Assembly (NCBI GenBank): GCA_949358305.1
Contig: OX442314.1
Location: forward strand, 23,994,001-24,058,000
Length of the DNA stretch: 64,000 nt
Direction: 5' to 3'
Source of the DNA: Strigamia acuminata
Taxonomy: Eukaryota
Part shown: positions 754-20,319 of the stretch, piece after piece
Layout of the letters: each line of letters opens with the position of its first letter
Position numbering within the stretch: position 1 is the stretch's first letter
The notes under the pieces: generated by a model
What the model was told of the DNA's origin: nothing
What the model saw: only the letters and a program-made list of their open reading frames with translations
Databases searched by the model: none
Position numbers and translations under genes: made by a program

Positions 754-822
754 CTGAAAAAAAAAATTGTGTTTTGGAAAATCTTTGCGAAACTTGCGAA
801 ACTATTTCTATATTAAGCCTAC

Positions 823-1040
823 TTGGCCATGTCGGCTTCCGAAGCAACACGACACGGAACGCCCCGATTGACACATTGGCCATTCACAGGATCGGGAGGT
901 GACAGATGGATGAAAGGTGGTTCCTCTAAGAACATCACTTTCAAATGAAATTTCTCGGGAACACCTGGTGGAGGCACGTGCGAGTTTCCTGGCCAAACGA
1001 TGTCTTTGATGTCCAGTCCATCTTTTGCCCAAGTGCCAAT
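823..1040 (-). CDS. Nmdar2: NMDA receptor GluN2 coding exon 8
   Basis: [43 protein letters not shown]..., matching the arthropod Nmdar2 ATD/S1 junction; TTTAG and GTAGG boundaries. Confidence 0.95.
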
Positions 1041-2396: not shown

Positions 2397-2523
2397 CTTT
2401 TCCCAGCGGTGATGTAAGTTAAGATTCATCACTTCCAACTCGGCGTATTTAATGGTTCCATCAACGTTGAATTCTAAATTGGGCTTGCTGCCACCGACAC
2501 TAACGCTCACATTGCGTAGGAAG
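2397..2523 (-). CDS. Nmdar2: NMDA receptor GluN2 coding exon 7
   Basis: FLRNVSVSVGGSKPNLEFNVDGTIKYAELEVMNLNLHHRWEK; CAG and GTACG boundaries, phase consistent. Confidence 0.93.
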
Positions 2524-2636
2524 CTGCAGGCATAAATAAAAGCCATTAATCGAACCACAAGTACAAAACAGAAATGTTCATTAATAACAACAGTGTCAGT
2601 GACAGAGCAATTAATTTGCACATCATTTGCGTTTAC

Positions 2637-2823
2637 TTATAAAACACTTCGCCAGATAGCCATTGTGAAGCTCCCTTTCCGCTGCAAGACAGATTGGGTT
2701 GAACGCTCACATTTTTCGTCAAATGAGGATTATTCACGTAAAGTTCCAAACCGTGGCCAAAAACTTTAACACCTTTTTCGATTTGGTTCTGCAAACCGTC
2801 TTCTCCCGTATCAAAATGAACTC
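2637..2823 (-). CDS. Nmdar2: NMDA receptor GluN2 coding exon 6
   Basis: GVHFDTGEDGLQNQIEKGVKVFGHGLELYV...LSCSGKGASQWLSGEVFY; acceptor follows a long poly-T tract; GTAAA donor. Confidence 0.92.
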
Positions 2824-2824
2824 C

Positions 2825-2863
<39 letters not shown>

Positions 2864-3311
2864 AATTTTTGAAATTGTCTTTAGATATAAAATTTTATTA
2901 TTGTTTTTACTGTTAAAAAAAATTATTTTTTAAATTTTATAATTATAGGTTTAGGTGTAAAACAATGTTTGCAACAGAAATCAATAATCTGCAATGTTCC
3001 AAATGGTGAATTCTCAAATCGAGGGTAAACTAAATGCACGAGAACTCGCCCTCGTTTATCTTGACAGTTTCTTAGAAAAGTTGACTCAAGTTTGGCTTTC
3101 CTTCTCCCTCGGTGATCCATTTGGACGTCCCCAGCGAGACTTACACCAGCACTGCTTTATCGTTGCTTAGTCCGAAGAAACGTATCGACTTTCCACATTT
3201 TCTCATGTGAAGCGTTAGAAACATCAAACCGTCCGAAGTGTAGTTTTAATATTATAATATAAACATTGGGATGCAGAACAAGGAAAATTAAGCCCTGGTT
3301 ATCGATCTTAC

Positions 3312-3562
3312 CCAGCATCCCTGATGGGAAATTAGCTGGTGGCGTTTCAGGTGTGTTTCCTATAATTGATTGCGTCGCGATCCACACGTAATCTCGTTCC
3401 ATAAGGCCAAGGCCTCTAGCCGCACTCACAATGTCGATTGCTTCATCTCTTGTGGCGTACAGCAAAATAATTCGTGTGTCGGTGTTGCGCAGCTTAGACA
3501 ACTGTGTTTGCATCGTCTCCAAATTGTTCGTATCCAGAGAAATTGTACTTAATAAGACAAAC
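3312..3562 (-). CDS. Nmdar2: NMDA receptor GluN2 coding exon 5 (amino-terminal domain)
   Basis: FVLLSTISL...RIILLYATRDEAIDIVSAARGLGLMERDYVWIATQSIIG...FPSGMLG; CAG and GTAAG boundaries. Confidence 0.95.
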
Positions 3563-3763
3563 CTGTTGGGAAGATTGAAAACAATAAATTAAGTCAAGAA
3601 CTGACATCGATAGCTCTTCAGTGGTCAGTGAGTTCAGCCAAGAAAAACAAGAAGTTGATTAATGCGGTGCAACCACGCTTTCAGCCAAAGCCCCTCTTAT
3701 AACATCATTAGTTTTCTTCATTCAATAGCAGTCAGAATGATGCAATGCAGTCCCTAAATTAAC

Positions 3764-4599
3764 GGATTGCAATTAACGACCCCCCTGAAATAACGGGTTT
3801 CCCCCGGAAAAATATTTGTTTGGCCCCCCAAATAAAACTAAGAAGGAAAATCTACTCAGTCCCCAAAAAACATTTTTGGACCCCCTAAAAACTGAAAACA
3901 GAAATAACAAAAATCACTCAATTACCCCCCAAAATAAGCATAATACGTGGCAGTTATTGCACTACAAGTGCCTTTTTAGCCTTAGACGGCCTGCCACGTT
4001 TCCTTTTTTCTCCTAGAGGAACATTTTTCGCTTCAAGCAAAACAGAGTATAGCTTCTCACCACTTGTCGATGTCATTTTCACGCAATGTCTTTTTCATAG
4101 CAGGAACAACGAAATACCGCTTAGTGTCTTCTTCTATCCTGATTTTAATTACTGGCATCGACCGCTTCCAGTTATAAGCCTCCGTGATCTGTTTTAGAGT
4201 AAGCGTAGGGTGCAGGCAAACAGTTTGGCGTTTACACAATCGGGTTTTCGCTCACTGGACCAATTGAGGACCATTTCTTTTAAAATAGGGATAAAACGGT
4301 GCATGGGCTGTCGATTACGGAATGTGTGGTGCGACTTGATGACATTGTTTGTAGCCTCTGATCCGTTATTAGTGCAGGGAGATCCTACGCAATGGCCCAC
4401 GTGCCAACCACAGAACCGGTACGTACGTGCGGCGTATCGAGGCTTAAATACCTTGTTTTGGGAGTTTAGGAAAATGGGGAGGGAATCTAGTTTAAAAGGG
4501 GGTGAAGTGGATATTTTTGGAGGGTCCCAAAAGTGGAGGGTATTTCATTTTATTTTGCGGAGGAAATCAGAGTTTTTGGGAGGCGTTTTATTATTGGCC
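3764..4599 (-). mobile_element. Internally deleted Mutator-like (MULE) DNA transposon
   Basis: 9-bp direct repeat TAAATTAAC at 3755-3763 and 4600-4608; GG...CC termini; degenerate C/A-rich versus G/T-rich ends; transposase C-terminal remnants (PCTNNGSEATNNVIKSHHTFRNRQPM, EAKNVPLGEKRKRGRPSKAKKAL). Confidence 0.75.
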
Positions 4600-5449
4600 T
4601 AAATTAACTAGTAAACTCGATGATCCTATTGCAATATATTTTTGAACCATGTGTGAATTCCCGACCATCCAATCCCAAATTTTTATGCACGTTTCATTAA
4701 ACTTTTAGCCAATACGTTAAGCATAAGCATAACATTATGGTTGAATAGATATGCATAGTTGTGTGATCAATGCATAAGAAAACATTGAAAATGCAGTTAA
4801 ATATTTACAAATGAACACCACTTTAACGATTTATAATCTTCCCATTCATTTTGGTTTTACAGGAATCACATGGTGAACTTTGTGTGACCCAAGAATGCTG
4901 AGATACAGTCGTGTGATGTCCAGGGGTCGGATGTGGTCACTGAAGGCATGTGGCAAGCGGATGATGGGAAAGAGGTCAGCGGGGACATACAAGTAGAAGA
5001 AAGAGAGATGGAGAGAGAAAGTCAGAGAAAAATAGATGGTCGATTGTAAAACTTGTGGTTGTGCGAAGACGCGAGTGAAGAGAGGCATGCACAATTGGTA
5101 TCCCAATCGGCACGCCGTAAACAGCGCTTTGCGACCAGCCAGATGATATTATTAGCCAGACGAAGTACCACATCTATTTGTCCAAGGGGATAGCGTGGAA
5201 TTGGACGGTCCAAAGACCAAACGAACCGAGTTAGAAACGTGATCACTCCTCCTGGACATAATAAAAAACAGACGTCAGGTAAAATCGCGTTATTATTCCT
5301 TCGTCATTGCATCTGGCAGCCAAAACTAAGTGAAACGACCGACTTTGCACAACATGTGACATGCTATATTGATAGAACTGAAACTTGTGTATTGATTTTT
5401 CCTCGCTATGATTTCCTTTCAGACCATAATATCAACAAGAATTTCATAC

Positions 5450-5737: not shown

Positions 5738-6521
5738 CTAAGAAAGATATATTAAAAGAAAATAGTGCATTACTACATGACTTTTTCTCGCAATGGTTTT
5801 GATTTGTAAAATAAAAAAATTTAAAGCCAAAACACGTTCCTTTTGGCTTTACAACATTTGTATCACGGTAATATCCTTGCTGGGAAATTAATTCCAAGCC
5901 AAAAGGTGAATTTCATTAAAGGGCAAGCACTTACGACTTAATCCCAAGTGTGCTTAAACTTTACCCACGTTACAATCAAAATCGATAAAGGAAAACACTT
6001 TTATCAATTTTACCTGAAAGGATGTGATGAATTAAACCACAATCGTGGCGCCTGATCTCGGCAACCAAAACAAACACTAGAATTAATAGCACGAGTGAAA
6101 TTGACATCAATTAAATTGCTGGTGAAACAAATGGAATTAAAATATTTGCTTTCCTGCAGCATCGATTTTCAAAAAACACTAAATATAGACTATTGGGAGG
6201 TTTAAAGTTTAAACCTGATTTTCATTTCGAATCTCAGTTTTCATATCGCTCACTGGTTTTTATCTTGTTTTGTATAATAAAAAAAACTTGCACTTTTAAT
6301 GCAGGCTCGGTTTGAAGAGTGTATTGATGCTAAAGTAAGTGTACATGTGGGTGGGTGTAAGTCAAGTAAAAATGAATTATGTACTAAAGTAGTGGCGCCA
6401 CTTTGGCGTTAATGCTTCTAAAAAGGAGTTTGGTATTCTGGAATTTCAAATTTTAAGTAAAAATAAAAAATATAAAAAATATATATATATATATGTACGG
6501 TATATAAAAGAAAAAAGTTCT

Positions 6522-7193
6522 TGTTACGAATCAACTTAGATGTTTAATTGATTTGATCTGAATTTACGCGCAAAGTGATGTTAGCGCAAATCAGCGGGCA
6601 AAGTTCGTAGATTTACTCTGTTTGTGCCATCGTCATATGCGGATATCGGACGGTGAATAAACCTAACTCGCTGTAACACACATTATTTATATTCGACGGG
6701 CTCAATCTCACGTTGTGGGTCTTTACGTTTAAAAAGAATGAGTATGCGCAGTGATATTCGTATGCGGGTGGGCGTAGGATGTCACAGGCATGCGAAGGGA
6801 TAAAAGGTGGGCAAAAAGAGGCGCTATTAAGTGTTAAATTAGAAGGGGCGCGTGTTAAAGCGCAAAATAAAGATTGACAAACTCAATTCAATCTAAGAGG
6901 TGTTAACTCGTTGAAAGAGATATGAGAAGTGTGTATTATAGATAAAAGTAGCGACCAGGTAAACATGAGTCATGTGACCAGGTCGATTGGAGTGGGTGAG
7001 GGGGTGGAAGGTATAAAATAAGGTTAATTGTTGGAAATAATAAGATGCGCGCAATGAAGCTGCGCATATATTTAGAGATGATTCATCGATGTTAGATGAA
7101 AAGAAAGATTGGGAAAAAATAAGAAAACTTAAGATTGGGTTAGTCTAAGTTAGAAATGAATAAAAAAGAAGGGTGGGTAACCTGCCCGTGACA
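6522..7193 (-). repeat. 3' LTR of the Gypsy element
   Basis: Direct repeat of 20345-21016 with no mismatch seen by eye; TGTTAC...GTGACA termini. Confidence 0.97.
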
Positions 7194-7206
7194 TCCCTCC
7201 CCCCTT
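7194..7206 (-). other. Polypurine tract (PPT)
   Basis: AAGGGGGGAGGGA on the minus strand directly before the 3' LTR. Confidence 0.9.
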
Positions 7207-9054
7207 AGGCTTTTATTATTCGAGATTTATCGAAGGGAATAAAAGGATAAGAGACAAGGAAAGTCATACAATAATAATGCGCTATGCGCAAAAATTATAC
7301 AAATTTTCAAAAAATAAACAAAAAATAAGTTAAATAAATTAAACAAAAATAGTGCGCGTCTGCGCAAAGACTTAACAACTCTGTCTAAAATAATGCACGT
7401 GGTGCAAAAACTTAACAACCTTGTCAAAATAATAAACTAAAGTTAAACAATACTAGATTAAATATGAAAGATTAATTAAATTATTAAAGGCAAAAAATTA
7501 ATAAATCATCATGGCTTTTGAAAAATAAATTTGAATCAATTTTCTTTTGTAAAGTCACAATGGTAAAATTTAAATCATTCTACTCGAAATCACAAAACGA
7601 AACAGGGACGACACAAGGAGGGCGAACACTAAACCTAAAGGGGCCGACGATACCTAGGACGGACGGGAGTCTATACACTTTACCCAAACAATTTATGAAA
7701 TAAAAATTTTAAACACTTTTACTTTTTTGTATAAACAAACTTCTGCTTCTTGGATAAAAATCATCGAATAAACAATTTTAAATTAAACAAAAATAAAGAG
7801 CCGACACATGAGAATTATCAGGAATCGTGATGGGATTTATTAATATCAAATTGGGTATTTATGTTATGGTAGGATGCGCGTAATTGCGCAAAACAAACAC
7901 AAAATAAAGGTAAGGTACATAATTATGCAATCTGCATAAGGTAAGTATGATTTCAGATTAATAGGAACTTTTTAAATGGATGCGCGAAACTTTGCGCAAG
8001 GATAATTAGGTTATTAATTCTATGAATGAAATGGAAAACAAAAATATAATATTAGAAACATAACAAATACCTGCGCGCACAATACAACTCGTATTGCCAC
8101 GGAATTAACCACGTTGATTTAAAATATCACAGAATTAAAGTAATCATGAAAAATTAGTTAAATATCACAATAAACTTGATTAAATACTTATGAAAAAACA
8201 TTTACATAAATTTAAACATTGAATACTAACTTGAATCATTCCAGAATAATTGCGCTAAAAATAAAATTTAACTGAAATGAAATTAAATTCCTAAACTTCG
8301 GAAGAAATTATCATAATTAAATAAAGATAATTCTGGAATGATTATGGCACAAAAAGATATCAAAATAATTAAAATAAAATAGATATATCAATAATATAAC
8401 TAGAAAAATTATCAAAAATCATAATTGCGCTTAAACAAAATATAATGGTAGCACTAAAAATCCAATTGTCCGATTCTAAAGCACTAAAAACGTAAAAATA
8501 ATTAAACAAAAATATAAATTATCAGTGAGGATTATCACAGTAGAAAACTTGCGCAAAAATAATAACACTTATGATGAAACACTAATAATAATTATTTGTT
8601 CTTCAAATCGACACATTACCGCTGCCCAAGCTCCTTCCATTAAGTCCTCCAACTCGAGAGATGTTTTACGGAGCGCCTCATCAATGGAATCGCATGGCGG
8701 AACGGAGAAAGAGTGAAGATTTAAAGATGATGAAGTTTTGTGGATACCATGTAGATATTGGAATGCAGGCCGGCCCAAACTCAACGCACAAATGCGGAGA
8801 TATTTTACTAGGGCATTTACCAGAGATCCACGATCTGGCGGTGCATTTTTGGACACAATTCGGGTTAAATGATGATGAAAACACAAAATAATGATGAATA
8901 GTAGGTTGAAGTGCGCACAAAGTCTTCGCAAATCACCAGGATCCTCGTATCAAGTCCTTCAACTCAACGCCGAAGCGGAGGAATTTTACGAAGCGCCCAT
9001 TGATGTGATCTCCCGACTTCAATTTGCAAAAAACCTGCGCACACAAAGTCACGT

Positions 9055-11829
9055 TTAGGATTGTTGTTCGAAATCCTTTTCCAAGATTTCGCGATGACGA
9101 GGAATTCGGAAATACTTAATCATATTAAGCGCAATTTCCACCACTATGCGCTGCGCATCGTGAAAGTTAACTGCACCTCGTCGGTTAATCTCGTTCCGAC
9201 AATGGTCGAGAAATAACTCTCCATATCGTCGATACAATAAATTTAATAACGGATTTGCCTCGGCCAAAGACATGCGCAAATCAGCAACGGCGAGGGAACG
9301 GAAAAGTTGTCGTTGCGCTTGTGTTGACATTCCAAATTGAAGGCACTCACCTCGACCGTTAGCGAAGTTGCAGATAATGGCCGCTGGAGACATCAAGCTA
9401 GGCAAAAGTTCCAAAGTAATTGTGGGTGGGGCATCGTCCCAACCCGAGAAACCCGGACCTGGTGGAATGGATGGCGCAAATTCGTGATGGTGAGCTGAAG
9501 TTTGAAGCATCTCTCGCAATTCGTTTAAACGAGTTTCCTCAGCGCATCGCTTTTCTTCCGCTTCCTTAGCTTCCTGGATCGCTTTCTTTTCCTCCTCAAC
9601 ACGATGGATCTCGGCAACGCGTGCTTTTTCCGCCGCATGTTTCTGCTCGTACTCCCGTTGACGTTGCTCAGTGGTCATTCGCTCGTAGTCACGACGGCGC
9701 CAAATGTGATAGATCATGCGCGAGATCTCCTCATGCATGATCCAAATTAACTGCTCCAGAACGCCATCATGATCGTAGATATCGCACTCCGACATCCGCC
9801 TCAATACTTGAGCAGCCATATCGCGAATACGAGTCTTCATCTGACCATGAATGTTGCGGAAATCCACACGAAGTATCTCAAAATCTTTGTCCATCATATG
9901 TTCTAAAAGCGCAATCCACCCTTTACGTTCCATATGAAATCGGGTCTTAGACACTTCTGGCCCCTTTACACAAATCTCGACCTCGAACTCATCTAATAAA
10001 TCGGGAATTAGTTCCAGAGAATTTACTGGTTTCGTTGTTACGCCGTATCGGTCAACTGCCAGATCGCAATGAGAGGCAATATCTCCAAGAGCCTGTGCCC
10101 CAGCAGAGGCAACAGTCGCGCTGGCTTCGGTAGGAGCCACTCGAAGGGGCGGCGTCGAAGTCTGGCTAGAGGAGACCGAAATCGTACTTGGTGTGGAAGC
10201 GGCCTTTGTAGTCGTGGAAACATTGCGCGATGGTAACTGCGCATAGGTGATGGGTCCAGGCGTCGACACTGGAATGTTCGAAATCTTCGTCGTTGAACAC
10301 GAGGGGGCCTCTGTTGCCCTAGCCGTCGTTACCGTGGTGGAAGTAGCACTCGCAGTTGTCACGAGAATATTTTTCTTTGCTAAAAGCTTCGGTCGGGCAC
10401 CTGTGTTAGAATTGAGATTATTATTATTAGAAGTTGGTTTTAAAGATGTCGCGGATAAATTCGCGTTCTGTGGCGATTGCGCAAATCGTTCCCGCATCGC
10501 TGGAGGAAGTCGTGCACTGAGTGGTGGTCCGCGGGGTTGCTGCGTGGACGGAACATTGGACAACCGTGGATCGGCCATTTTCCGCTCCAACTTTCGGACA
10601 TCTTGGACCTGCGCAGCCGGTGTTTCTGCAAAAATCTCATGGGCCACTCCACAGATGGACGGGGTTACACTGAAACTCGATTCGTTGTCCCGAACTGGTG
10701 GAGTGCTGGTACGACACTGGGCGATTTCTTCGTTATGTATACGAGTTAATTCCGCCATTTCTTGTTCAGTCACATTTCCCAACGTAGAACGGCCAGAATA
10801 ATAGCGCAAATCACAGGGCGGATCTGAGTTCTCGTTTTTTGTAACTGGAATTGAAACAATATGGGTAGACACACTTGTGAACATGGAATCATCGTCGTCC
10901 TCATCATCCCCGTTATTGTCAATGGATAAACTGGCCAGTTGCACTGTTGCTTGTGCAAGGGTTTCCTCGGATGGCTGTGGACGATATCTAGTCGTATTGG
11001 TGTCCCGAGTTTCGTCACGGCGCAAAGGCATTTTTGTGTCCTCAATCTTACCCAGCACTTTCTGCGTAAGTTTCTCCGTACGATCCTCTCGTCTGTTGAT
11101 TGAACATGGAGGACGATTTCCTGTAAAATAGGGTAATACTGACTGGTCATTAGTGTCTATGGTATCCATTGCGCCCTGAGTCTCTGCAACCAGTTCCACT
11201 TGCTCACTCATCATCGAGGCATCCCCTGGAAATGGGTGAAAATAGCGAATTGTTGCGGATTGCATCTGATCAACAAGATGTTGTTCTTTCAACATGGGAG
11301 CCAGTCCTTCCACCTCATCTTGAAGTAAATTTGGCACTTGAATATACAAAAGTTGCACCACCTCCGCCATCGGATAGATCCATTGTCGCGGTGTAATACG
11401 ATTTGTGTGCGCAACTCGTTGCGCCCGGTGCCAATACCAGAAGTGGATCGTCCGGAACCTCTGTATTGACACCGGACTACCGTTCAGTGGGCGGAATGGT
11501 GGATATGTCACACTTACGATAATCACATGGTCTTGTTCATATCTTCGCAACACCCAACCGTAGATTTGGCGCATCCAAACGATGTGTAAATTGCGCCGTA
11601 AGTCCCCTCGACCATCACACGCCCGGCACTTGCATTCGGGCCTCGGCGGGTCAATCTCTTTACCGTAACCAGAGCATACCGGACATATCTCGTAGTTAGG
11701 GAATCCAGCATCGAGTGGATCGTCGGGATGGTTGTGTGGAAACTTCGGTGGACCCGCCGCATGTAAAGGCGGTGTTCGATAGTTTTTAGGGTATTTCCTT
11801 CCCGGGAAGTCTTCATTACAACACGCCAT
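9055..11829 (-). CDS. Gypsy element ORF3: 924-aa accessory protein of unknown function (N-terminal CxxCxGxG zinc finger pair, S/T/P-rich linker, coiled coil); not env-like
   Basis: Uninterrupted 2.8-kb ORF inside the LTR boundaries, good start context CCAAC-ATG-G, motifs CPVCSGYG and CRACDGRG; no signal peptide or TM segment apparent. Confidence 0.85.
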   Translation of the reverse strand: MACCNEDFPGRKYPKNYRTPPLHAAGPPKFPHNHPDDPLDAGFPNYEICPVCSGYGKEIDPPRPECKCRACDGRGDLRRNLHIVWMRQIYGWVLRRYEQDHVIIVSVTYPPFRPLNGSPVSIQRFRTIHFWYWHRAQRVAHTNRITPRQWIYPMAEVVQLLYIQVPNLLQDEVEGLAPMLKEQHLVDQMQSATIRYFHPFPGDASMMSEQVELVAETQGAMDTIDTNDQSVLPYFTGNRPPCSINRREDRTEKLTQKVLGKIEDTKMPLRRDETRDTNTTRYRPQPSEETLAQATVQLASLSIDNNGDDEDDDDSMFTSVSTHIVSIPVTKNENSDPPCDLRYYSGRSTLGNVTEQEMAELTRIHNEEIAQCRTSTPPVRDNESSFSVTPSICGVAHEIFAETPAAQVQDVRKLERKMADPRLSNVPSTQQPRGPPLSARLPPAMRERFAQSPQNANLSATSLKPTSNNNNLNSNTGARPKLLAKKNILVTTASATSTTVTTARATEAPSCSTTKISNIPVSTPGPITYAQLPSRNVSTTTKAASTPSTISVSSSQTSTPPLRVAPTEASATVASAGAQALGDIASHCDLAVDRYGVTTKPVNSLELIPDLLDEFEVEICVKGPEVSKTRFHMERKGWIALLEHMMDKDFEILRVDFRNIHGQMKTRIRDMAAQVLRRMSECDIYDHDGVLEQLIWIMHEEISRMIYHIWRRRDYERMTTEQRQREYEQKHAAEKARVAEIHRVEEEKKAIQEAKEAEEKRCAEETRLNELREMLQTSAHHHEFAPSIPPGPGFSGWDDAPPTITLELLPSLMSPAAIICNFANGRGECLQFGMSTQAQRQLFRSLAVADLRMSLAEANPLLNLLYRRYGELFLDHCRNEINRRGAVNFHDAQRIVVEIALNMIKYFRIPRHREILEKDFEQQS

Positions 11830-12561
11830 GTTGGTTTCGATATTCGTTGAATAATATAATGCGCCTAAGTTTGGTGGAGGTAATGCTTATATAAATATAC
11901 AAAACAACTAATACGTTTGGCAAACGATACTCACAATTATCAAGCGCAACAACACGAACGCGCACAGAACGAAACAAACAACGAGGACTAAAGAATATTC
12001 CCAGGAATGTAACGAGTCGTAAAACTTTGCTTCGAGAAGCTTCGATGAACGATTGAAAACTCGCACATGTAATAAAGTCGGGTTCGAGGTTAAACACTAA
12101 CTAATTGCAATTGAAGGGCGACATTCAGTGTTGGAATTCGGAAGTTAACGAAGGTTGTCTTCGCTCAAAACTCTTGTTTTAAAGTGATTAAATAAGGATG
12201 GTGAGATAAACAAGTAATAATTCAGAACACAGAATATTAATTTAAATAAAGTGCGCATAAATTATATTAATTGAATAATTTAAATGAATTGTGGAAATAG
12301 CCACGTGCTATTGTTAGAGATTAATTGGCGTCGCGCACTCTGGTGACGGACATAGTCCCTGATTGAAATGGACTTAGTTATTTTCCAGTCGCGAGTGAAT
12401 GTAAACATGAAACACATAACACAAAACATTAAATATAAAATATGAAGGAAATATAAAATAACATAAAACATAAAAATTAAGATGAATAAATTTAGAATGA
12501 AAGGAAAAATAGTTTTTAAACAAAATAGGTAGTAAAGATAGATTTACACCGGATTACACCG

Positions 12562-12563
<2 letters not shown>

Positions 12564-12611
<48 letters not shown>
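12564..12611 (-). repeat. 48-nt poly(A) tract on the element sense strand between pol and ORF3
   Basis: T48 run on the plus strand, starting 17 nt after the pol stop. Confidence 0.9.
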
Positions 12612-12615
<4 letters not shown>

Positions 12616-12627
12616 AATCAAAGAAAA

Positions 12628-15600
12628 TTACTTAAATGAAAGAAAATAGGCAGAAAAAATATCCAAAGTGTTGACAGCAAAAACTTCAACATGTTTATCA
12701 ATAATTTCAACGTCTTTTAAAGTTAAAAAGTTGGCCTCGGCAAAAAACCAATGTCGCAATTCCACGACATTATAAGGCTGGGTTTTTTGGCCGTTTTCAT
12801 CCATTAGGATTACTGTATTGGGGCCCACCAATCTATGTATAATATATACACCTTCAGTACGCTGGCGTAAACCTGCTGCGAATTGCTTATCGGCAGATGA
12901 AGGTTGCCGATTGCGCAAAGTTACCCAGTCGCCAGGACGGAAGTCATGGGGGCGCCGTTTTAAATCGAACCATTTTTTGTGTCGAATTTGGGACTCGCGC
13001 AAGTTGTTAATCGCGCTTTCTCGCATTCTACGCATGTGTTCGTGCAAATTCTCAGCTTCCACGGGCGGTAACGGTTCTCCGTCATCCGTGTCGCTATCCA
13101 GGTCGCCCGGAAATCGAGCTTCCTGGCCTGTTACCATTTTAAAGGGTGAATACTTTAAAGAAATTTGATACGCTGAATTAATCGCGAGCACGAAATAGCC
13201 AATGTTGACATCCCATCTAGTATGGTCATCATCAATATATGCTAATATACAGTTCTTTAATGATTGGTTAAGCCTTTCCGCAATATTACCTTGCGGGTGA
13301 TATGCGGCGGTATATCTATTTATTGCGCCAAGTTGCTGAATTTGGCTACGAAACTCTGGTGAGCGAAAAGCAGGCGCATTATCGCTAATAATTATCTTGG
13401 GAAAACCCCATCTTTTGCAGAATTTCTGAATTTGTTTCACCGTAGTGGCTATATTTGAGTTTTCGGTTAGACGTACGTCTAACCATCGGCTAGCAGAGTC
13501 GACCATCACAAAGGCATAGCAATGTCCCTCTGTGGATCGAGGTTTCTTGCCGTAATAGTCGATGTAGATAGCAGAGAAAAGATGACGCGATCTGGACATT
13601 ATCATTTTTCCATATGGGAGCCTGTTAAGGGGTTTAGCTCTTTGACACGCTTCGCAAACCTGTATCCATATTCGAATATCTTCGCGCATTTTTGGCCAAA
13701 ATACGCGCGATTTAATGCGATGGAGTGTTCGTTCTTGCCCCATATGCCCAACTACGGGTGGATAGTGCATTGCGCGGAAATATCTTTCTCTAAGTTCAAA
13801 TGGGAGATATATTTGGCGCCTCTTTCTGATTTCATTAATATGGACAGGAGGGAAGCGACATAACATCTCTTTATACATGCCGAAATCTTGCGCGTCAGCC
13901 ACAATTTTCGCAGCCTCATCCGGATCAAGTGGTAACATTTGGGCAGTTAAATAAAATATCAACTCACGCGACCAGGGGTCCTGTCTTTGCGCAGCAATGA
14001 TTTCAGCAGCAGTAGGCAACAGTTCGAACGGAGGATGTTCAATTGGTGGATCGTGCTCCAATTCGGCTTGCTTCTCTGCTTCAGTCCTCAAATCTTCAAT
14101 TACTGTCCTTTCCCGTCGCGGACGCAATCTCGATGGAGTTCTTCGCGCTGATGTTGGAGGCGCATAATAACTCCTTGTCGGTGGCGACATATCACGAATG
14201 GGTCCAAAACTGTCCTCAGACGAGGTGGAATCAGAATCCGGGTCTGAAGTATATCCTTCGGGCCTTTGCTGTCCTGATGGTCCCGCCGCATCATCATACA
14301 TTACCGGCTCAGAAGGTTGACGCGGAGAAATAACAGGAAAATCAGTGATAGGAATTGAAGGAGTTGGGGAAGGAGTTGGTAAATTTGGAATTTCAGGAGA
14401 AGGTTTTGGAATAGGCCTTCGATGGCTATCAGATTGAATAATTGGTGCAGGAACTCCAGTGATTCGACGGAAATTTCGTCGTATTTTATCCACCAAAGTT
14501 CCAGGTGTTGGCAATTGTGATGGCGCCGAAGCAGTCTTTTGTCTAAAACTAGATGGATTTATTGGCGCAGGAATTCTGGTTGGAATAATTGCCGAAGGAG
14601 GAATGGAACTAGGAATAGGAGTGGATATTGGAGTTGCAGGAGGGGTAGGAATAGGTAAAGGTGGTGGAATTAAAACTGATTTAGGTTTAGGTTTCACCAC
14701 ATGGGAAGGAATAGCGGATTTACGTCGCACTGCCTTCAACCTTCCTACTTGCTGTGATTTCAATAACTTTGGAAATGTCCACTTTTTAATAGTTCCCGCA
14801 TACCTGGGTGGTAGCCATGGTGGTGTTTTAGGAATCAAAGATGGATCCTTTAATCTAGCTCGAGTTCGTGTGGCTATTGCCCGTTTAGCACGAGGAGATA
14901 AAATTGGCACAATATTAATTTTACGTGGTCTTCCTCGTTTCTTTATCAGAATTGGGATTAAAGAGCGCTGTCGACGAGTTCGCAAAGGCACTGAAACACG
15001 AACTGGTGATGAATTAGGAGTTTTTACTTGTGAGGTTGGTTGCGCAACTGGAACTGATGCATTTGGTGTTGCAGTTGGTTGCACAACTGGGGCTGGTGCA
15101 GCCGGAGGGATTGTAACCGGCGGTGCCCTCGTTGGAGGAGCAGCCACGCCAGCAGAAGATGGAATTTGCGCACCTGAAGTCGGCGCATTTCCAATCACCT
15201 TCCTTGTACCAGTTGGTCGAGGAATAAGAGATTTTTTCTTATTTTTCTTCTTAGTCGGTGAAGATGCTGCAATGAGAGGCACTTTTTTAAATTTAGATTT
15301 AAATAACTTTCGAAACTGCAAATTAATGTCTTTTGGCAATTCCTTGATGATATTAAGTGCAGGCCACTCGTTACAATCATCAAAATAGGCAAGGTAGCAC
15401 GCCTCGTCGACCTCCGGGCTGTCATCCTCATCGTCGACTTCAGGTGGGTCGACAGGAGCTCGACTCAGTGCATCCGCTACCTTATTTTTGCATCCTGAGC
15501 AGTGCAAAAACGTGAACTTATAATCACTTAACGATAATACCCAACGGGCTAAACGTCCAGTTGGTTCCCTTTGCTGAAATAACCACTTAAGAGATTGATG

Positions 15601-18273
15601 GTCGCTCTCGAGGTAGAATGGCATCATCTCGAGGTATGCGCGAAAGCGTTTGACACCCCAAACCGCGGCCAAACATTCGATTTCAGTTACTTTATAGTTC
15701 TTTTCAGCGCTGTTTAATGCGCGAGAGGCAAATGCGATTGGAATTCTCACACCTTCATCATTAAGTTGCATTAAAGCAGCACCTAATCCAGAATAACTAG
15801 CATCGGTCTGCAATATAAATGGTTTTTTCCAACTGGGAAAACGTCTTTTCAGTGTTGGTATCGCAATCTGGTCTTTCAGATATTCGAATGCTAATTGCTG
15901 CGCATCTGTCCAAATCCAACTTGCGTCCTTTTTAAGCAATGGTCGGAAAACTTCGCTAATTTTGGAAAAATTTGCAATGAATGATTGGTAATAACCTACC
16001 ATGCCTTTAAATCGTTGTAATTCGCGCAAACTGGTTGGCGCGGGATAATTTTGAATAGCCACCACTTTCTTTGGATTTGGTGTAATCTGGCCAGATTCCA
16101 CGATGTGTCCCAAAACCTCGAGTCTTTTTTGACAAAGCTCAGTTTTGTTGGCGTTCATGGTGAATCCAGCGTTGAACAATTCCTCTAAAACGAGGCGCAA
16201 ATGTTGCACGTGTTCCTCGAAAGTTCGGCTAAAAATAATCACGTCATCAATATACACAAATACAAATTTGTAAAGATATTTCGCAAGAGTCTTATTCATC
16301 GCTCGTTGGAGGGTAGCGGGTCCGTTGATAGGTCCGAAAGGCATGCGCACATATTCGAATAAACCTCGATGTGTTATAAAAGCTAAATACCGTTCGTCAC
16401 CTTTGCGCACGCCGATCTGATGGAAAGCTTCGCGTCCGTCGATTATCGAAAACCAATGCGCACCTCCCAAATATGCAAAGATGTTATCAATGTCCGGAAG
16501 GGGGTAAACGTCCGGAATTGTTTGCGCATTAATGGGGCGAAAATCCATAGCAGTTCTCCATTCGCCTGTCTTCTTGGGTACGACGACCGGAGCAACGGCG
16601 CAATCACTTTGGGATCGCCGAATAATACCTTGCTGCAGCTTTTTGTCGATATATTTATCAATTATCGCCTTTTTCGCAGGGTTTACCGGGCGCACAGGGA
16701 CATGAATTGGACGAAAATCCGGTTTCAGGTTCACCTCGTACTCGGTGTTATTACATAAACCAATTTCTTCGCGAAAGATTTGCGAAACGGGCTGCAATGT
16801 TTTAATTAATAGTTTTATCTGCGACACTGTTAATTGGTTCCACAACTGGTGGTAAATCCAATCTAAATCGGTCGGATCTCCACTAGGTTGGTACTGCAAA
16901 AAATTAATGTCATTAATGTTCTTTTTAGAGTTATTCCCACCATTGTCAGGTTGCGCAATCGAAAAGATGTTGATTTTCGACTCCTTCTTGGCATTGATGT
17001 CTTTAGCACGTTGCGCAACGAGTTGTTTGGCAATTGGACGAATAACATTGATTTTTCGTCGTAAACGTCGTAAGCGTCGAAACTGACTCAAAGTTAATTT
17101 ACGTGAAATTGTCTTTTTTAAATTGGAGGAAATTTTAGAAGTTTCTTTCCTCTTTGGGGACCAAATATTCGACCATTTGCGTTGCGCACGATGTCGAACT
17201 TGTTTAACTCGATACTGCGCATCGTCATGTGGATACTCGAATATTTCTTGTTGCAAGGGTCTATGCGCCAGGAGGAGGCAGTTAATTTCACTCACCGGAT
17301 CCGGTTTCCTTAGTATTTTCGTCGGAACGATCTCACTAATGGCCGCCGGTGGGTTGGATGGATCCTGCGTTTCTTCTGGCGCAAACGGCAAAATCAGAAT
17401 TGACTCTGACTTTTTTGCTTCTTCATAAGTCATGAATTTGCGAATCTCATTTGAGCCCACCATGCTCCACTGCTGTCTCGCATGGTCGATGTCGATTCCG
17501 GCCGCTGTGCAGAAATCACGTCCAAGGAGCATATCCATTTTGGCATCGGGTAAAACCATGCAAATGAATTTTATTATGCCGATTGGGGCGCGCAAAGCGA
17601 GCTGCATCGACTTGGTGGAATCTACTATGTCACCAGACGCGACCTGCACCCGCTCATGGAGATTCACGAAGTCTAAACCCATTTTTTCGTGTAGTTGTTG
17701 AAACACGTCTTCACTCATTACACACGTTTGTGCGCCTGAGTCCAGAAGCGCAGTACAAGCTACATTAGCCCAGGAAATCTTTACGCAAGGTGCTTTTTTG
17801 CACAAACGATCCCCGCGCGTTATCTCAATGATGGGTTCTTGAGTTTCTTTAAGTTCCTCTGGCGTTAACATTACGAAAGATACCTTCATAGGAGAGATCA
17901 CTTCCTTTGGAGCCTCAGTCGTTGTTGCACTGGAAGTAGACTTAATTATTGGTAAAGTTTTAGTAATTTTACTCACTATTGTCACTTTCGGGTTTTTCTT
18001 CGAAATTACAGGTTGCAAATCTGTTAATTTCGGCAATTCGTCCTTTACAGCTTCAGGAACGGCAGTCTGCAGATCTGACGCCTTTGTAGCTGATGTGATG
18101 ATGGAAGATGATGAAGAAATAACACTACTTACAGGTTTATACTCTGAAAGAGTAATAACAGTAGGAGATGTTGTTGAATTAACCTGTGAAGGATTGTCCT
18201 CTTTCAAGTTAATTAAAGGTGAAGCGCGTCGTTTGGATTTCAGACGTTTTGCGCGAAGGGCCGGTCGACTCAT
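12628..18273 (-). CDS. pol: Gypsy Pol polyprotein (aspartic protease, RT, RNase H, long low-complexity insert, integrase)
   Basis: ALLDSGA protease; RMPFG and YIDD RT motifs; LQTDAS...DHQSL...VADALSR RNase H; HYPPVVGH...CEAC zinc finger; SDNAP...GNIAER integrase core. Confidence 0.97.
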   Translation of the reverse strand: MSRPALRAKRLKSKRRASPLINLKEDNPSQVNSTTSPTVITLSEYKPVSSVISSSSSIITSATKASDLQTAVPEAVKDELPKLTDLQPVISKKNPKVTIVSKITKTLPIIKSTSSATTTEAPKEVISPMKVSFVMLTPEELKETQEPIIEITRGDRLCKKAPCVKISWANVACTALLDSGAQTCVMSEDVFQQLHEKMGLDFVNLHERVQVASGDIVDSTKSMQLALRAPIGIIKFICMVLPDAKMDMLLGRDFCTAAGIDIDHARQQWSMVGSNEIRKFMTYEEAKKSESILILPFAPEETQDPSNPPAAISEIVPTKILRKPDPVSEINCLLLAHRPLQQEIFEYPHDDAQYRVKQVRHRAQRKWSNIWSPKRKETSKISSNLKKTISRKLTLSQFRRLRRLRRKINVIRPIAKQLVAQRAKDINAKKESKINIFSIAQPDNGGNNSKKNINDINFLQYQPSGDPTDLDWIYHQLWNQLTVSQIKLLIKTLQPVSQIFREEIGLCNNTEYEVNLKPDFRPIHVPVRPVNPAKKAIIDKYIDKKLQQGIIRRSQSDCAVAPVVVPKKTGEWRTAMDFRPINAQTIPDVYPLPDIDNIFAYLGGAHWFSIIDGREAFHQIGVRKGDERYLAFITHRGLFEYVRMPFGPINGPATLQRAMNKTLAKYLYKFVFVYIDDVIIFSRTFEEHVQHLRLVLEELFNAGFTMNANKTELCQKRLEVLGHIVESGQITPNPKKVVAIQNYPAPTSLRELQRFKGMVGYYQSFIANFSKISEVFRPLLKKDASWIWTDAQQLAFEYLKDQIAIPTLKRRFPSWKKPFILQTDASYSGLGAALMQLNDEGVRIPIAFASRALNSAEKNYKVTEIECLAAVWGVKRFRAYLEMMPFYLESDHQSLKWLFQQREPTGRLARWVLSLSDYKFTFLHCSGCKNKVADALSRAPVDPPEVDDEDDSPEVDEACYLAYFDDCNEWPALNIIKELPKDINLQFRKLFKSKFKKVPLIAASSPTKKKNKKKSLIPRPTGTRKVIGNAPTSGAQIPSSAGVAAPPTRAPPVTIPPAAPAPVVQPTATPNASVPVAQPTSQVKTPNSSPVRVSVPLRTRRQRSLIPILIKKRGRPRKINIVPILSPRAKRAIATRTRARLKDPSLIPKTPPWLPPRYAGTIKKWTFPKLLKSQQVGRLKAVRRKSAIPSHVVKPKPKSVLIPPPLPIPTPPATPISTPIPSSIPPSAIIPTRIPAPINPSSFRQKTASAPSQLPTPGTLVDKIRRNFRRITGVPAPIIQSDSHRRPIPKPSPEIPNLPTPSPTPSIPITDFPVISPRQPSEPVMYDDAAGPSGQQRPEGYTSDPDSDSTSSEDSFGPIRDMSPPTRSYYAPPTSARRTPSRLRPRRERTVIEDLRTEAEKQAELEHDPPIEHPPFELLPTAAEIIAAQRQDPWSRELIFYLTAQMLPLDPDEAAKIVADAQDFGMYKEMLCRFPPVHINEIRKRRQIYLPFELRERYFRAMHYPPVVGHMGQERTLHRIKSRVFWPKMREDIRIWIQVCEACQRAKPLNRLPYGKMIMSRSRHLFSAIYIDYYGKKPRSTEGHCYAFVMVDSASRWLDVRLTENSNIATTVKQIQKFCKRWGFPKIIISDNAPAFRSPEFRSQIQQLGAINRYTAAYHPQGNIAERLNQSLKNCILAYIDDDHTRWDVNIGYFVLAINSAYQISLKYSPFKMVTGQEARFPGDLDSDTDDGEPLPPVEAENLHEHMRRMRESAINNLRESQIRHKKWFDLKRRPHDFRPGDWVTLRNRQPSSADKQFAAGLRQRTEGVYIIHRLVGPNTVILMDENGQKTQPYNVVELRHWFFAEANFLTLKDVEIIDKHVEVFAVNTLDIFSAYFLSFK

Positions 18274-20240
18274 TTGCGGCCTGGTTCCACCGGCTTCCCG
18301 AACTTCAGGCCTTCGGAGTTTTCCGGTCTCCTAAATGGCTGGTAACATATAGGGCACAACGGATGCCAAGTTGCTGAATCGACCAAATACCACCAATCCT
18401 TCGGTGTTTTCCTCCAGGCTGTACCTTTCTCAGGATTTTTGACAGTTAATGGTGGTTTTGGCGCTGGTGGAAATGTAACAATTGATGTAGAGCACACATG
18501 GTCCTTTGGGACGTCCGCTGGAGGCGTCAGAGTAGCTAAATTTATTTTAATTGTTGCCTTCTGAGCCGCCTCGGCGACTGTGCTCTTCTTAATTTCAGGT
18601 TCAGCATCCGTGTCACTACTGCTGCTACTCGAGTCAGGTTCCTGCGCAGATGGAGATTGTTCTGGTCTCGCCTGCACTGCAGCTAACTCGATTAAGAATT
18701 GTTTTCGATACCTCGCAAAACGCTTGACGTCCTGGGACACGAGAGATTTGACATCATCGTCTCCTTTGGACTTCTCCGCAGCCTTGAGCACTGTGGGGCG
18801 TTGCGCATCACGCAGAGAGGGCATTCGTTGATCAGCCATACCCAGATCTTTGTATTCGTCTGCTCGAATGGTGTCCAGCTGTAGACGATTGTCGATGTCG
18901 TTACCTCTTTGGATCGCCTCGTCCAGCGAGTTTACGTTCCATGCGCGTAAGAGATGAACAACCTCGGTTTGCATCATGTTCTGAGCTTTCTCCCATTGGA
19001 GCTCTGGGTCGGTATATCCTGCAACTTGAAGATAATACACAATCTCACTTAAAAATGACATTGTAGATTCTCCATTTCGTTGCTTTCGCTTGGATAGCTT
19101 CACATTGGCCGCTGCCGAATTCATGGCGAAAGCTCGTCGAAATAATATCTCAAAGTCCTCCCATGTTTTTGGTTTTGGTTTTAGTGATAACCACCATCGC
19201 TGCGCTCTTCCACGCGTTGCTTGAATGACAAATACTTTTAAATATTCATCCACCGGGGCCTGCATAGAATACATGTGCGCGTACAAATGCGCAAGAAAAA
19301 GATTAATGTAATCAAGATCGGCTTTATCTGGATCAAACAAAGGTGGTTTTCCAGGCTTGAAACAATTTTTATCTTTACTTGTATGTTGCGCTCTTACTGA
19401 CGGCAGTGACAACTTTGCCTTGGTGTCGGATCTGTCCCGAGGATATCCCATCTTGGAGTATAGCATCGAGCTCATTAAATCTCGATTTGCTCGTGTTGAA
19501 TGGTCCAAATGAGCAGATTCCTGCGATGGAGCCTGGGTGTAGATCGTTGCCATCGCCGGCATTGGCGGCGTGGTTGTTGTGTAAACAATTTGCGCAGCCC
19601 GCGCGGATGTTCTCGTCTGCTGGCCTCGATGTTCAACTTCCCGATGCTGGTGCAGACGTGCTGTGAGAAGTCCTAAATCATATGGTGCCGAGGTGCCTTT
19701 AACTCTTATGGAGCCATGCGAGGATCCACCGTCTAGAGACCGTGCGGTCCCTGTTCGTAGAGAGCGAGGGCCTTGTTGGAATATTTCGCGAATCTCATTT
19801 ACTAGACCTCGTGTTTGAGCATAGTATTGGTTGCGCAAGTCGGACATCAGCAAACCTTCCGTATTTAATGTGACGGGGTCTACTAAAGCTCTAGGCTGAG
19901 TCGAATCGAAAAAAGATGGCGCCGCCAAAAAGTCAGCGGGTGTGGACGTGGCAAAATTTACTTGAGGTTGCGCTCGTGAATTTGCAACAGCCATTGTCGT
20001 GATATGATTTGATGGGGCTGGCTGTTGTTGCGCAATACTCACAAGCGTTTCCTGTTGTTCAATACGACTTCTTCGTAATTGGTCGTGTTGCTGCCACTCT
20101 CGAAATTCCCTTTCTTCTTCCCGGCGAACACCACTCCTCCGTTCGGACTGTTGCCATTCCTGCTCCATTTCTAGCTCACTGAAATCAAATGGATCGCGCG
20201 TGACGGGACGAATTCCGTCACCTCCCAACTGTCTCGACAT
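18270..20240 (-). CDS. gag: Gypsy Gag (capsid-like) protein, 656 aa
   Basis: First ORF after the PBS; retrotransposon-gag-like GRAQRWW...TWEDFEILFRRAF...RKQRNGES; overlaps pol in the -1 frame. Confidence 0.92.
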   Translation of the reverse strand: MSRQLGGDGIRPVTRDPFDFSELEMEQEWQQSERRSGVRREEEREFREWQQHDQLRRSRIEQQETLVSIAQQQPAPSNHITTMAVANSRAQPQVNFATSTPADFLAAPSFFDSTQPRALVDPVTLNTEGLLMSDLRNQYYAQTRGLVNEIREIFQQGPRSLRTGTARSLDGGSSHGSIRVKGTSAPYDLGLLTARLHQHREVEHRGQQTRTSARAAQIVYTTTTPPMPAMATIYTQAPSQESAHLDHSTRANRDLMSSMLYSKMGYPRDRSDTKAKLSLPSVRAQHTSKDKNCFKPGKPPLFDPDKADLDYINLFLAHLYAHMYSMQAPVDEYLKVFVIQATRGRAQRWWLSLKPKPKTWEDFEILFRRAFAMNSAAANVKLSKRKQRNGESTMSFLSEIVYYLQVAGYTDPELQWEKAQNMMQTEVVHLLRAWNVNSLDEAIQRGNDIDNRLQLDTIRADEYKDLGMADQRMPSLRDAQRPTVLKAAEKSKGDDDVKSLVSQDVKRFARYRKQFLIELAAVQARPEQSPSAQEPDSSSSSSDTDAEPEIKKSTVAEAAQKATIKINLATLTPPADVPKDHVCSTSIVTFPPAPKPPLTVKNPEKGTAWRKTPKDWWYLVDSATWHPLCPICYQPFRRPENSEGLKFGKPVEPGRK

Positions 20241-20319
20241 GATGAAGAAAATGTGAAATGATTAAATAAATAACTCAAAAAACTAACCTTTTCGCGCGTT
20301 TAAGCCTTATAGGTGAGAG

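Follow-up and report, generated by a model that had tools for sequence, protein, structure and literature searches.

Introduction

Accessory genes are a route by which retroelements escape host control, and few of them have been worked out in animals. Functional examples from animals include CERV and sORF2, and an example of sequence-specific anti-silencing, VANC, comes from plant DNA transposons. An initial annotation of the locus described here held that extra non-env ORFs are poorly described in animal Gypsy elements, which was partly overstated, as CERV of Cer1, the bdelloid ORF3s, the Burro accessory ORFs and sORF1/2 of MDG1 have all been published. The third open reading frame (ORF3) of the present element, which lies in a 64,000-nucleotide stretch of Strigamia acuminata DNA (the window), can be set beside several of these systems. 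The ORF3s of bdelloid Vesta and Juno (PMC5408684) and the sense additional ORFs of plant elements (PMC7264820) are, in the available parts of those papers, like it in position, orientation, family-specific occurrence and in being separate ORFs. They are recognisable enzymes (GDSL, DEDDy), membrane proteins or coiled-coil proteins, whereas the ORF3 described here belongs to no family that could be recognised and shows a zinc site of CxxCxGxG type together with what is probably an internal duplication. CERV, from the C. elegans Ty3/Gypsy element Cer1, is also an orphan, with a predicted zinc finger of C4 type and several folded domains connected by flexible linkers, but, unlike ORF3, it arises by splicing of exons in the gag frame, has a length of 517 aa and has been shown to act in RNA export, the two being compared by description from the available text of PMC10309623.

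Three further systems bear on how such a protein might act. The VANC proteins of Arabidopsis VANDAL elements combine, like the element here, an accessory protein with a short motif accumulated along the element. VANDALs are plant DNA transposons, and VANC proteins have DUF1985/DUF287 domains and 8-9-base targets in non-coding tandem repeats (available text of PMC5735166), whereas the motif here is a 5-6-base CpG palindrome that runs through coding DNA and its binding is only predicted. BZLF1/Zta of EBV offers a template for a factor that an element encodes and that uses CpG motifs to switch on the element's own methylated genome (PMC3435241, in the part available); BZLF1 is a herpesvirus AP-1-related factor, and no family of this kind was matched by ORF3. 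CopiaMBD, known from Strigamia and spiders, is likewise an LTR retrotransposon of arthropods that carries an extra module linked, in the present element only as a proposal, to host DNA methylation, but it is a Copia element with a recognisable MBD and a role in insertion-site choice, as far as the accessible text of PMC6673714 describes it, and a search of ORF3 gave no MBD match.

The element and its third open reading frame

The element is a Ty3/Gypsy (Metaviridae) LTR retrotransposon of 14,495 bp on the minus strand, and the pol domain order, LTRs with TG...CA ends, primer-binding site, polypurine tract and target-site duplication of this class are all present. It is inserted between exons of an arthropod NMDA-receptor gene, and one host exon shows 90% identity with a protein of Strigamia (the single such match among 59 candidates). 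It had been called giant; it is large, but lies under the 20-kb line for giant elements given in the available part of PMC6431247. Its 5' LTR (20345-21016) and 3' LTR (6522-7193), which had been noted as looking identical, are so at 672 of 672 bases and are bordered by a 4-bp target-site duplication (left copy 6518-6521, plus strand; right copy 21017-21020). The element is thus a recent insertion. No Rfam match was found over the whole element.

From the 5' LTR onward, all on the minus strand, a primer-binding site of tRNA-Arg type (20320-20340) begins 4 nt past the LTR; in this site the last 9 of 12 bases match an Arg-ACG tRNA end given in supplement 2 of PMC13524379. The leader holds a splice-donor-like site found by pattern scan (20282-20287), 47 nt upstream of the gag ATG, which is a candidate donor for an ORF3 message. 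The gag gene (18270-20240, 656 aa), which matches Pfam Retrotrans_gag with E=2e-4, under the family cut-off, ends in a stop that overlaps the start of pol (ATGA). The pol gene (12628-18273, 1881 aa) has the order protease, reverse transcriptase (RT), RNase H, integrase according to Pfam (matches at aa 166-254, 565-725, 816-918 and 1491-1660), and a long Pro-rich linker separates its RNase H from its integrase. An AT-rich spacer of 798 nt (11830-12627) extends from pol to ORF3 and includes a 48-nt poly(A) tract (12564-12611) directly past the pol stop; by pattern only, it shows acceptor-like (AG) and donor-like sites, at 11886 and 11934 respectively, and it holds no ATG from 12068 up to the start of ORF3. 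Past ORF3 there is an AT-rich 3' untranslated region (7207-9054), in which the first 500 nt contain a degenerate duplication and two stop-free stretches lacking an ATG, followed by the polypurine tract (7194-7206).

The initial annotation had reported an intact sense ORF with a strong start context in the position of env, and this was borne out. ORF3 (9055-11829, found by ORF scan) has 924 codons on the minus strand, shares its sense with gag and pol, and sits after pol; its ATG has A at -3 and G at +4. The probability of 924 stop-free codons at the local base composition is about 4e-21, and the remaining five frames across the same region carry 29-54 stops each. These observations, together with the searches described below, support ORF3 as an intact, orphan, non-env third ORF that moved along with the element.

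As ORF3 occupies the env position, an envelope protein or cell-cell fusogen that has diverged strongly has to be considered, and it appears extremely unlikely. The Kyte-Doolittle hydropathy maximum of ORF3 is 1.42 (19-residue window) and its N-terminus is neither hydrophobic nor signal-like, in agreement with the earlier remark that signal peptide, membrane anchor and fusion-peptide patterns are missing; by hydropathy ORF3 therefore has neither the signal peptide nor the C-terminal membrane anchor of errantivirus type, and no R-x-K/R-R furin site is found. Proteins of the sORF2/FAST type are, in the available text of bioRxiv 10.1101/2025.03.14.642691, 60-210 aa long and have a single membrane segment plus an N-myristoylation motif, while ORF3 is 924 aa with no membrane segment and does not begin with MG. 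Fusion proteins of the F and gB types gave no Pfam or sequence match, and the fold searches, made with low-confidence models, were blank. Since it has no hydrophobic membrane segment, ORF3 is considered to be neither env nor fusogen.

Domains and predicted structure of ORF3

The N-terminal part of ORF3 carries two CxxCxGxG motifs (11605-11685, minus strand; aa 49-56 and 68-75), an arrangement that none of 20,000 shuffles of the protein reproduced. A full DnaJ cysteine-rich domain has four such motifs, and the two in ORF3 are predicted to form one C4 zinc site equivalent to half of that domain, which implies nothing specific about chaperone activity. The same motifs occur in the DnaJ cysteine-rich domain (PF00684) and in anti-TRAP (PF15777/RtpA), both of which ORF3 matches weakly and with scores far under the cut-offs (14.5-16.3 bits against 32.7 for PF00684), and no J-domain was matched at E up to 1 with the whole protein or up to 5 with the parts scanned. 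Of the DnaJ-type zinc finger proposed initially, the motifs therefore stand and the full domain does not. Literature searches pairing CxxCxGxG with retrotransposons returned plant DnaJ/ORANGE proteins only, and those pairing a DnaJ-type zinc finger with a retrotransposon ORF returned nothing.

A zinc site of this kind need not bind DNA, as the weak match to anti-TRAP illustrates, and ORF3 might instead bind the unspliced genomic RNA and export or chaperone it in the manner of CERV or Rev, with the DNA motif described below being unrelated or serving a host factor. CERV is itself an orphan among the accessory proteins of Gypsy elements, has a predicted C4 zinc finger and is made from a spliced mRNA (in the available text of PMC10309623), and in the present element, by pattern only, gag is preceded by a donor-like site and ORF3 by an acceptor-like one. 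In contrast, CERV has 517 aa and exons in common with gag while ORF3 is a separate 924-aa ORF past pol, and an RNA role of this kind is regarded as unlikely.

The middle of the protein was described earlier as about 380 aa of S/T/P-rich disorder, which applies best to aa 450-600, where this richness peaks; aa 200-400 are more mixed and acidic. It is followed by a folded-looking domain M (aa 601-715; 9685-10029, minus strand), predicted by low-confidence models to be a beta-hairpin and then helices. A long charged helix (aa 715-775; 9505-9687, minus strand; pLDDT 76-95) comes next, in which 51% of residues are E, K or R and the i,i+4 pairs include 11 of opposite charge and none of like charge. 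Its heptad pattern is not clear, and what had been taken for a coiled coil looks more like a charged single alpha-helix between domain M and the C-terminal domain C (aa 802-924; 9058-9426, minus strand). Domains M and C are probably an internal duplication: their gap-free diagonal 601/802 was matched by 3/300 shuffles over 50 aa, 2/300 over 60 aa and 17/300 over 40 aa, and strands and helices are predicted in the same order in both. The repeat is absent from the N-terminal domain of ORF3.

Two single-sequence models of ORF3 were available, with mean pLDDT of 38.6 and 53.5. With these low-confidence models Foldseek gave no match in PDB or BFVD at E up to 0.001. VIA-align returned generic helices only (best Z 7.6, rmsd 2.2, 69 aligned), barely covered the hairpins and domain C, and listed no EF-hand protein. 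A reading of the hairpin-helix units as PC4-like or Bro-N-like, suggested by resemblance, gained no support. A sequence scan for a basic nuclear-localisation pattern and profile searches for DNA-binding families were both negative for ORF3.

The long disordered region and rigid helix would also suit a cytoplasmic scaffold or adaptor involved in particle assembly, trafficking or contact with host-defence proteins, in which the C-terminal domains may be decayed EF-hand pairs that were captured from a penta-EF-hand protein of calpain type. When M and C are combined in a two-sequence profile, the top hits among solved structures are calpain penta-EF-hand chains, aligned in register over the first EF-hand; E is 0.034-0.12 where the chain has a single domain and 2e-4 to 5.5e-4 where it is a two-domain chimera. 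Neither domain M alone nor domain C alone matches calpain, however, up to E=10 no EF-hand family was hit, and domain C by itself reaches E=0.002 with a designed repeat protein, which means that this score level includes noise. The scaffold reading is accordingly judged fairly improbable.

Homologues and relatives

Homologues of ORF3 were found neither among 7,992 scored candidates of 508-1617 aa, nor among 1.84 billion cluster representatives at E up to 0.001, nor among 597 pattern matches in metagenome contigs; feature searches of the ESM Atlas with the whole protein and with aa 596-924 yielded none, and an exact look-up was blank. The tBLASTn comparison suggested by the initial annotation, run with parts of ORF3 against 80 Gypsy loci at E up to 0.5, found no similar ORF downstream, and a direct comparison with the 796-aa extra ORF of Gypsy locus L052 gave a best E of 1.4. 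The collections searched are poor in animal transposon proteins, so these blanks do not prove a family confined to one species. They do support the view that ORF3 has no recognisable origin as a captured host gene among the collections searched.

Close relatives of pol are likewise missing from the viral and metagenome contigs searched. The best RT-RNase H relatives of pol are ~43% identical; neither of two pattern matches in viral contigs was a close relative, and the best in metagenome contigs reached 42%. In an RT phylogeny of 120 sequences the element forms a long branch in a group of 19 leaves (support 0.99) in which the only named member is from the tick Ornithodoros, the tree holding no named-clade reference sequences. 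Among the matches listed in literature searches, neither those for Gypsy ORF3s of myriapods or centipedes nor those for TGCGCA within retrotransposons describe the element.

Family copies and selection

The element belongs to a high-copy family, being covered by hundreds to thousands of contigs in three runs of one organism from two studies. The summed contig depth over ORF3 is 0.42-0.48 of that over gag-pol in the three runs; depth is no copy number, and this ratio is therefore not evidence that half of the copies lack ORF3. The best-supported 12 of 56 indels all lie outside gag, pol and ORF3, and all eight listed pieces over ORF3 are gap-free at up to 11-16% divergence (6 records, overlapping and non-independent). 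No RNA record carrying the element or ORF3 was among the matches listed.

It might be argued that ORF3 is a passenger, that is, a captured and fast-diverged host or viral gene that is open only through the recent expansion of a subfamily. An excess of synonymous change is not seen (3 of the 8 listed ORF3 differences against an expected fraction of 0.29, p=0.42; all five non-synonymous ones fall within the disordered part), and among the RT-RNase H relatives for which downstream DNA was at hand, none of 80 loci, all at most 42% identical in RT, has a similar ORF. Against this, diverged family contigs are gap-free over ORF3, a donor gene is absent among the 1.84 billion representatives, and the motif excess in ORF3 at the synonymous level, reached by none of 2000 shuffles, takes long residence, making a passenger highly unlikely. 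The motif signature common to ORF3 and these gap-free diverged contigs point to ORF3 as a resident gene of a high-copy family.

A dispersed CpG motif

Independent of the protein, the element carries a dispersed motif, GCGCA/TGCGC with the core palindrome TGCGCA, at 92 sites on both strands over one LTR and the internal region (6522-21016), with a median spacing of 124 bp. Among all 5-mers of the element it shows the strongest enrichment (127 against 42.5 expected under an order-2 Markov model, P ~1e-25). Its density is 11-25 sites per 2 kb inside the element and 0-4 outside, stopping at the element borders, and the enrichment is absent from the host flanks and from the DIRS-like element of the window. 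None of the tandem arrays in the element holds the motif, and the sites are evenly spread, ORFs included. The strands carry 67 and 69 occurrences, a symmetry that fits a double-stranded DNA signal and, with respect to an RNA role of ORF3, argues that the motif, at least, is no RNA signal.

With protein and codon usage held fixed, the motif is the top 5-mer both in pol (47 against 14.4, z 9.2) and in ORF3 (26 against 10.7, z 5.7), whereas under synonymous shuffling the top z was at most 4.7 in 29 of 30 control Gypsy ORFs. Because the motif is still the top 5-mer of ORF3 after such shuffling, ORF3 is probably a long-term resident of the element. Among the ten NCGN classes GCGC alone stands out (3.27, the others 0.55-1.35), and a graded methylation-context effect was rejected as the source of the motif for this reason.

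The motif resembles the sites of C/EBP (TTGCGCAA) and NRF1/Ewg (TGCGCATGCGCA). The 8-mer palindrome is enriched in the element (10 against 0.73). Identity with a C/EBP site was rejected, the variants tested being at most weakly raised (3 against 0.96, 1 against 0.7 and 1 against 1.0), and so was identity with an NRF1 site, the NRF1 12-mer being absent from the element. Four of 47 Gypsy loci tested (L012, L015, L026 and L052) have dispersed element-wide motifs of their own, with no clear association with an extra ORF, and the motif may therefore serve a host factor or reflect a mutational process. In the available text of two sources, TGCGCA ranks top for methylation maintenance in vertebrate cells (bioRxiv 10.64898/2026.04.09.717557) and transposons are methylated in Strigamia (PMC6673714).

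Discussion

We tentatively propose that ORF3 is a soluble trans-acting regulator that keeps copies of the element expressed, perhaps by reading the dispersed CpG motif, a reading that is quite possible but short of probable. The initial suggestion of an uncharacterised trans-acting factor holds as far as an orphan, non-env, intact and mobile ORF is concerned; no function is established by it. In such a mechanism ORF3 would be made from a spliced or internally initiated RNA. Either its N-terminal zinc-site domain or the duplicated pair of domains at its C-terminus would contact the palindromic CpG motif, and its disordered middle would recruit host factors. Located at ~90 sites per copy, the protein would counter methylation-based silencing along the whole element, by a logic like that of the plant VANC proteins, or of EBV BZLF1 if the sites are methylated.

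The solubility of ORF3 by hydropathy and its intactness in a copy with identical LTRs count in favour of a regulator, as do the gap-free diverged contigs of a high-copy family, the strand-symmetric motif that ORF3 has in common with the rest of the element, the methylation of transposons in Strigamia and the precedents of VANC and BZLF1. Several points count against it. The protein and the motif are not linked by any match, ORF3 having no DNA-binding family and no nuclear-localisation pattern, and VANC targets lie in non-coding tandem repeats while the motif here runs evenly through coding sequence. Purifying selection on the protein is not apparent from the eight listed differences, of which three are synonymous. 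A stronger version, in which an animal LTR retrotransposon has its own sequence-specific counter-silencing, with a CpG palindrome at ~90 places in LTRs, spacers and codons and a reader protein of new fold, perhaps methyl-reading, activating all copies, is decidedly unlikely on present sequence evidence; under it, Gypsy families whose dispersed motifs differ would each form a lock-and-key pair of their own.

The element thus has both a large orphan protein and, as an independent feature, a motif that spans the whole element and is sharply bounded. If the two do not pair, CpG motifs across Gypsy coding sequence are an unexplained signature of several unrelated elements. If ORF3 and the motif do pair, the element would be an animal counterpart of VANC.

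Structure and setting of the element

ORF3 follows pol in a Ty3/Gypsy LTR retrotransposon of 14,495 bp (6522-21016, minus strand), which is bounded by identical LTRs of 672 bp each with a 4-bp duplication at the flanks and has a polypurine tract before the 3′ LTR and, after the 5′ LTR, a primer-binding site of the tRNA-Arg type (as judged against the tRNA ends that supplement 2 of PMC13524379 lists). The overlap between gag (656 aa) and pol (1881 aa) is four bases long, and pol encodes protease, reverse transcriptase (RT), RNase H, then integrase, in the Gypsy order. We give no clade name, because the nearest relatives found for its RT-RNase H region are just ~43% identical and because, in a tree of 120 sequences, it stands on a long branch in a group with a single named member, which comes from a tick. 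Between RNase H and integrase, pol carries an in-frame Pro/Ser/Arg-rich stretch of more than 400 aa (13999-15438, minus strand) that has no Pfam match and by a rough pattern measure exceeds nearly all of 75 relatives in length. Directly after the pol stop, the sense strand carries 48 nt of poly(A) (12564-12611), and then a 10-bp tandem pair.

The element probably sits in an intron or the upstream region of an NMDA-receptor-like gene, since it lies upstream of, and on the same strand as, NMDA-receptor-like exons at 525-3588, one of which shares 90% identity with a Strigamia maritima (centipede) protein (the sole match among 59 candidates), pointing to an arthropod host, possibly a myriapod. Nothing recognisable was found upstream of the element. 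Also present in the window are a DIRS-like element (47087-52226), which has perfect inverted termini of 132 bp, a tyrosine recombinase ORF and an RT joined to a Dam-like adenine methyltransferase domain, and which served as a control in the motif analysis; exons of a sodium/calcium exchanger gene (61094-63705, minus strand; Na_Ca_ex and Calx-beta matches); and MITE-like inverted-repeat elements at 22510-22993 and 58618-59118, which are mutually related, at 43211-43983, and at 57545-58038, the last enclosing an 18-bp tandem array.

Frame and architecture of the ORF3 protein

The initial annotation described an intact ORF with a strong start context, and its 924 codons are indeed open (9055-11829, minus strand), which cannot be due to chance (~4e-21). 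The two CxxCxGxG motifs are likewise present (aa 49-75), none of 20,000 shuffles yielding two, and would together hold one zinc ion. Their assignment to a DnaJ-type zinc finger is weak: the DnaJ central domain match is far below the cut-off, as is one of the same region to anti-TRAP, and Pfam gave no J-domain match. Consistent with the annotation, hydropathy reveals no signal-like or membrane segment and, with no furin-type site present in the protein, env and sORF2/FAST-type fusogens are unlikely; we regard the reading of ORF3 as an env or fusogen as highly improbable.

A helix is confidently predicted at aa 715-775, where an E/K/R coiled coil had been proposed, but its charge pattern is that of a single alpha-helix. 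It is flanked by two predicted domains, M (aa 601-715) and C (aa 802-924), which in low-confidence structure models share the same order of a beta-hairpin followed by helices. In an all-diagonal scan their alignment is gap-free over 50-60 residues, with a score reached by 3 (50 residues) and 2 (60 residues) of 300 shuffles, and by 17 of 300 at 40 residues. This rarely matched similarity and the common element order make an old internal duplication probable but not certain. With a profile of M plus C, calpain penta-EF-hand chains rank first in the PDB (E=0.034-0.12 per single-domain chain); because neither domain reproduces this match singly and an unrelated designed protein scores on par, EF-hand kinship is a lead from profile comparison. 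That ORF3 is a scaffold in the cytoplasm, with what may be decayed EF-hands, is rather doubtful.

Searches for homologues and fold relatives (protein representatives, metagenome contigs, Gypsy loci and PDB, the fold searches with low-confidence models) were all blank or generic. Non-env third ORFs had been thought poorly described in animal Gypsy elements; they are in fact a known kind in animals as in plants, according to PMC5408684, PMC6431247 and PMC7264820. ORF3 is real and a further example of this class, its function unproven. Neither its architecture (a single predicted CxxCxGxG zinc site, long disorder and a probably duplicated domain around a charged helix) nor the element-wide motif that accompanies it was found described in the literature searched on retrotransposon CxxCxGxG proteins, myriapod Gypsy ORFs or TGCGCA. 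Long orphan non-membrane frames downstream of pol also occur in unrelated Gypsy loci (L024:6503-7978, L014:5633-7342 and L044:11456-13132, none with a Pfam match), and locus L052 has two orphan frames after pol (355 and 796 codons).

Conservation of ORF3 within the family

The family was compared using three public runs from two studies of an organism labelled A, one of which may be the source of the window itself; each run covers all 30 bins of the compared stretch (790 to 4,730 contigs). The 12 best-supported of 56 indels in these contigs all lie outside ORFs, although non-coding DNA makes up just a quarter of the stretch. Of the 7,086 contig pieces, 26 were listed; eight of these map to the 3′ half of ORF3 and, though some are 11-16% diverged, have no gaps, compared with gaps in 4 of 16 gag-pol pieces. 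Among the data sets listed as containing the element, none is of RNA. Among 40 listed substitutions of 810, the eight in ORF3 (three synonymous, five non-synonymous) resemble neutral change (p=0.42), while 11 of 21 in pol are synonymous (p=0.02); the five ORF3 replacements fall in the disordered part (aa 325-562), and the two differences in folded parts are synonymous. Conservation of the frame is indicated by the indel positions and the gap-free diverged pieces, whereas purifying selection on the protein is unproven given the neutral-like substitutions. That ORF3 is a passenger is quite unlikely.

Behind the ORF3 stop there is a degenerate duplication (~8870-9060 against 8570-8740, minus strand; score 113, with 200 shuffles reaching at most 93), and two stretches there, 8933-9115 and 8569-8949 (minus strand), are free of stops but have no ATG. 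Family differences at 9005, 9014 and 9035 each hit a third position and are synonymous in the frame of the former, and other copies show single-base indels in the region (8570-9115), which may represent a relic or an additional short coding segment.

A dispersed motif common to ORF3 and the rest of the element

A recurrent word was first spotted in non-coding parts of the element, and all words were tested afterwards. GCGCA/TGCGC is its most enriched 5-mer (127 observed, whereas an order-2 Markov model predicts 42.5), and the top 6-mers are GCGCAA (61 against 14.2) and TGCGCA (35 against 6.6). Density is 11-25 per 2 kb within the element and 0-4 in every outside bin, the strands carry 67 and 69, and the 92 sites are distributed evenly, with a median gap of 124 bp, none of the element's tandem arrays containing the motif. 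The excess persists against synonymous-codon shuffling in pol (47 against 14.6) and ORF3 (26 against 10.6; 0/2000 shuffles each) and in gag (17 against 8.2; 5/2000), and so resides in the DNA and is not forced by the proteins. Among 30 of the 80 control Gypsy loci, those with an ORF of at least 3 kb, the best 5-mer z is at most 4.7 in 29, compared with 9.2 in the element's pol and 5.7 in ORF3; the exception, L012, reaches 13.5 with a different word. This common signature is the best evidence that ORF3 has long evolved with the element.

Signatures of this type are not unique, as four of 47 control loci of at least 4 kb (L012, L015, L026 and L052) have evenly spread words of their own. The over-represented words are CCGGCAA-type on both strands in L012, TCGCA in L026 and L052, and GAGCA in L015. 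The element shows no CpG depletion (observed/expected 1.0-1.8), and of the CpG contexts GCGC alone is raised.

Proposed function

Strigamia methylates its own transposons, according to PMC6673714, and TGCGCA is the hexamer with the best-maintained methylation in vertebrate cells, as stated in bioRxiv 10.64898/2026.04.09.717557. Passive decay should therefore deplete rather than enrich TGCGCA, on vertebrate data that may not hold in arthropods, and gain of the motif against this trend suggests a reader. A host reader or mutational bias alone could account for the motif apart from ORF3; no result ties the protein to the motif, and neither a recognised DNA-binding domain nor a basic localisation signal was found in it. 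Models for ORF3 acting through the motif are VANC proteins, which lift silencing by binding motifs that have built up in the transposons encoding them (PMC5735166), and BZLF1, which activates a methylated viral genome via methylated CpG motifs (PMC3435241). By analogy with these, that ORF3 regulates its own family at the DNA level, with the motif as candidate target, is plausible yet short of probable, while the full lock-and-key version, in which ORF3 would read the motif as the element's own code, is unlikely. That ORF3 is an RNA export factor like CERV (PMC10309623) is likewise rather doubtful. Being soluble and orphan, retained across a high-copy family, and encoded in the Gypsy accessory-gene slot, the ORF3 product would most likely serve the element in trans.
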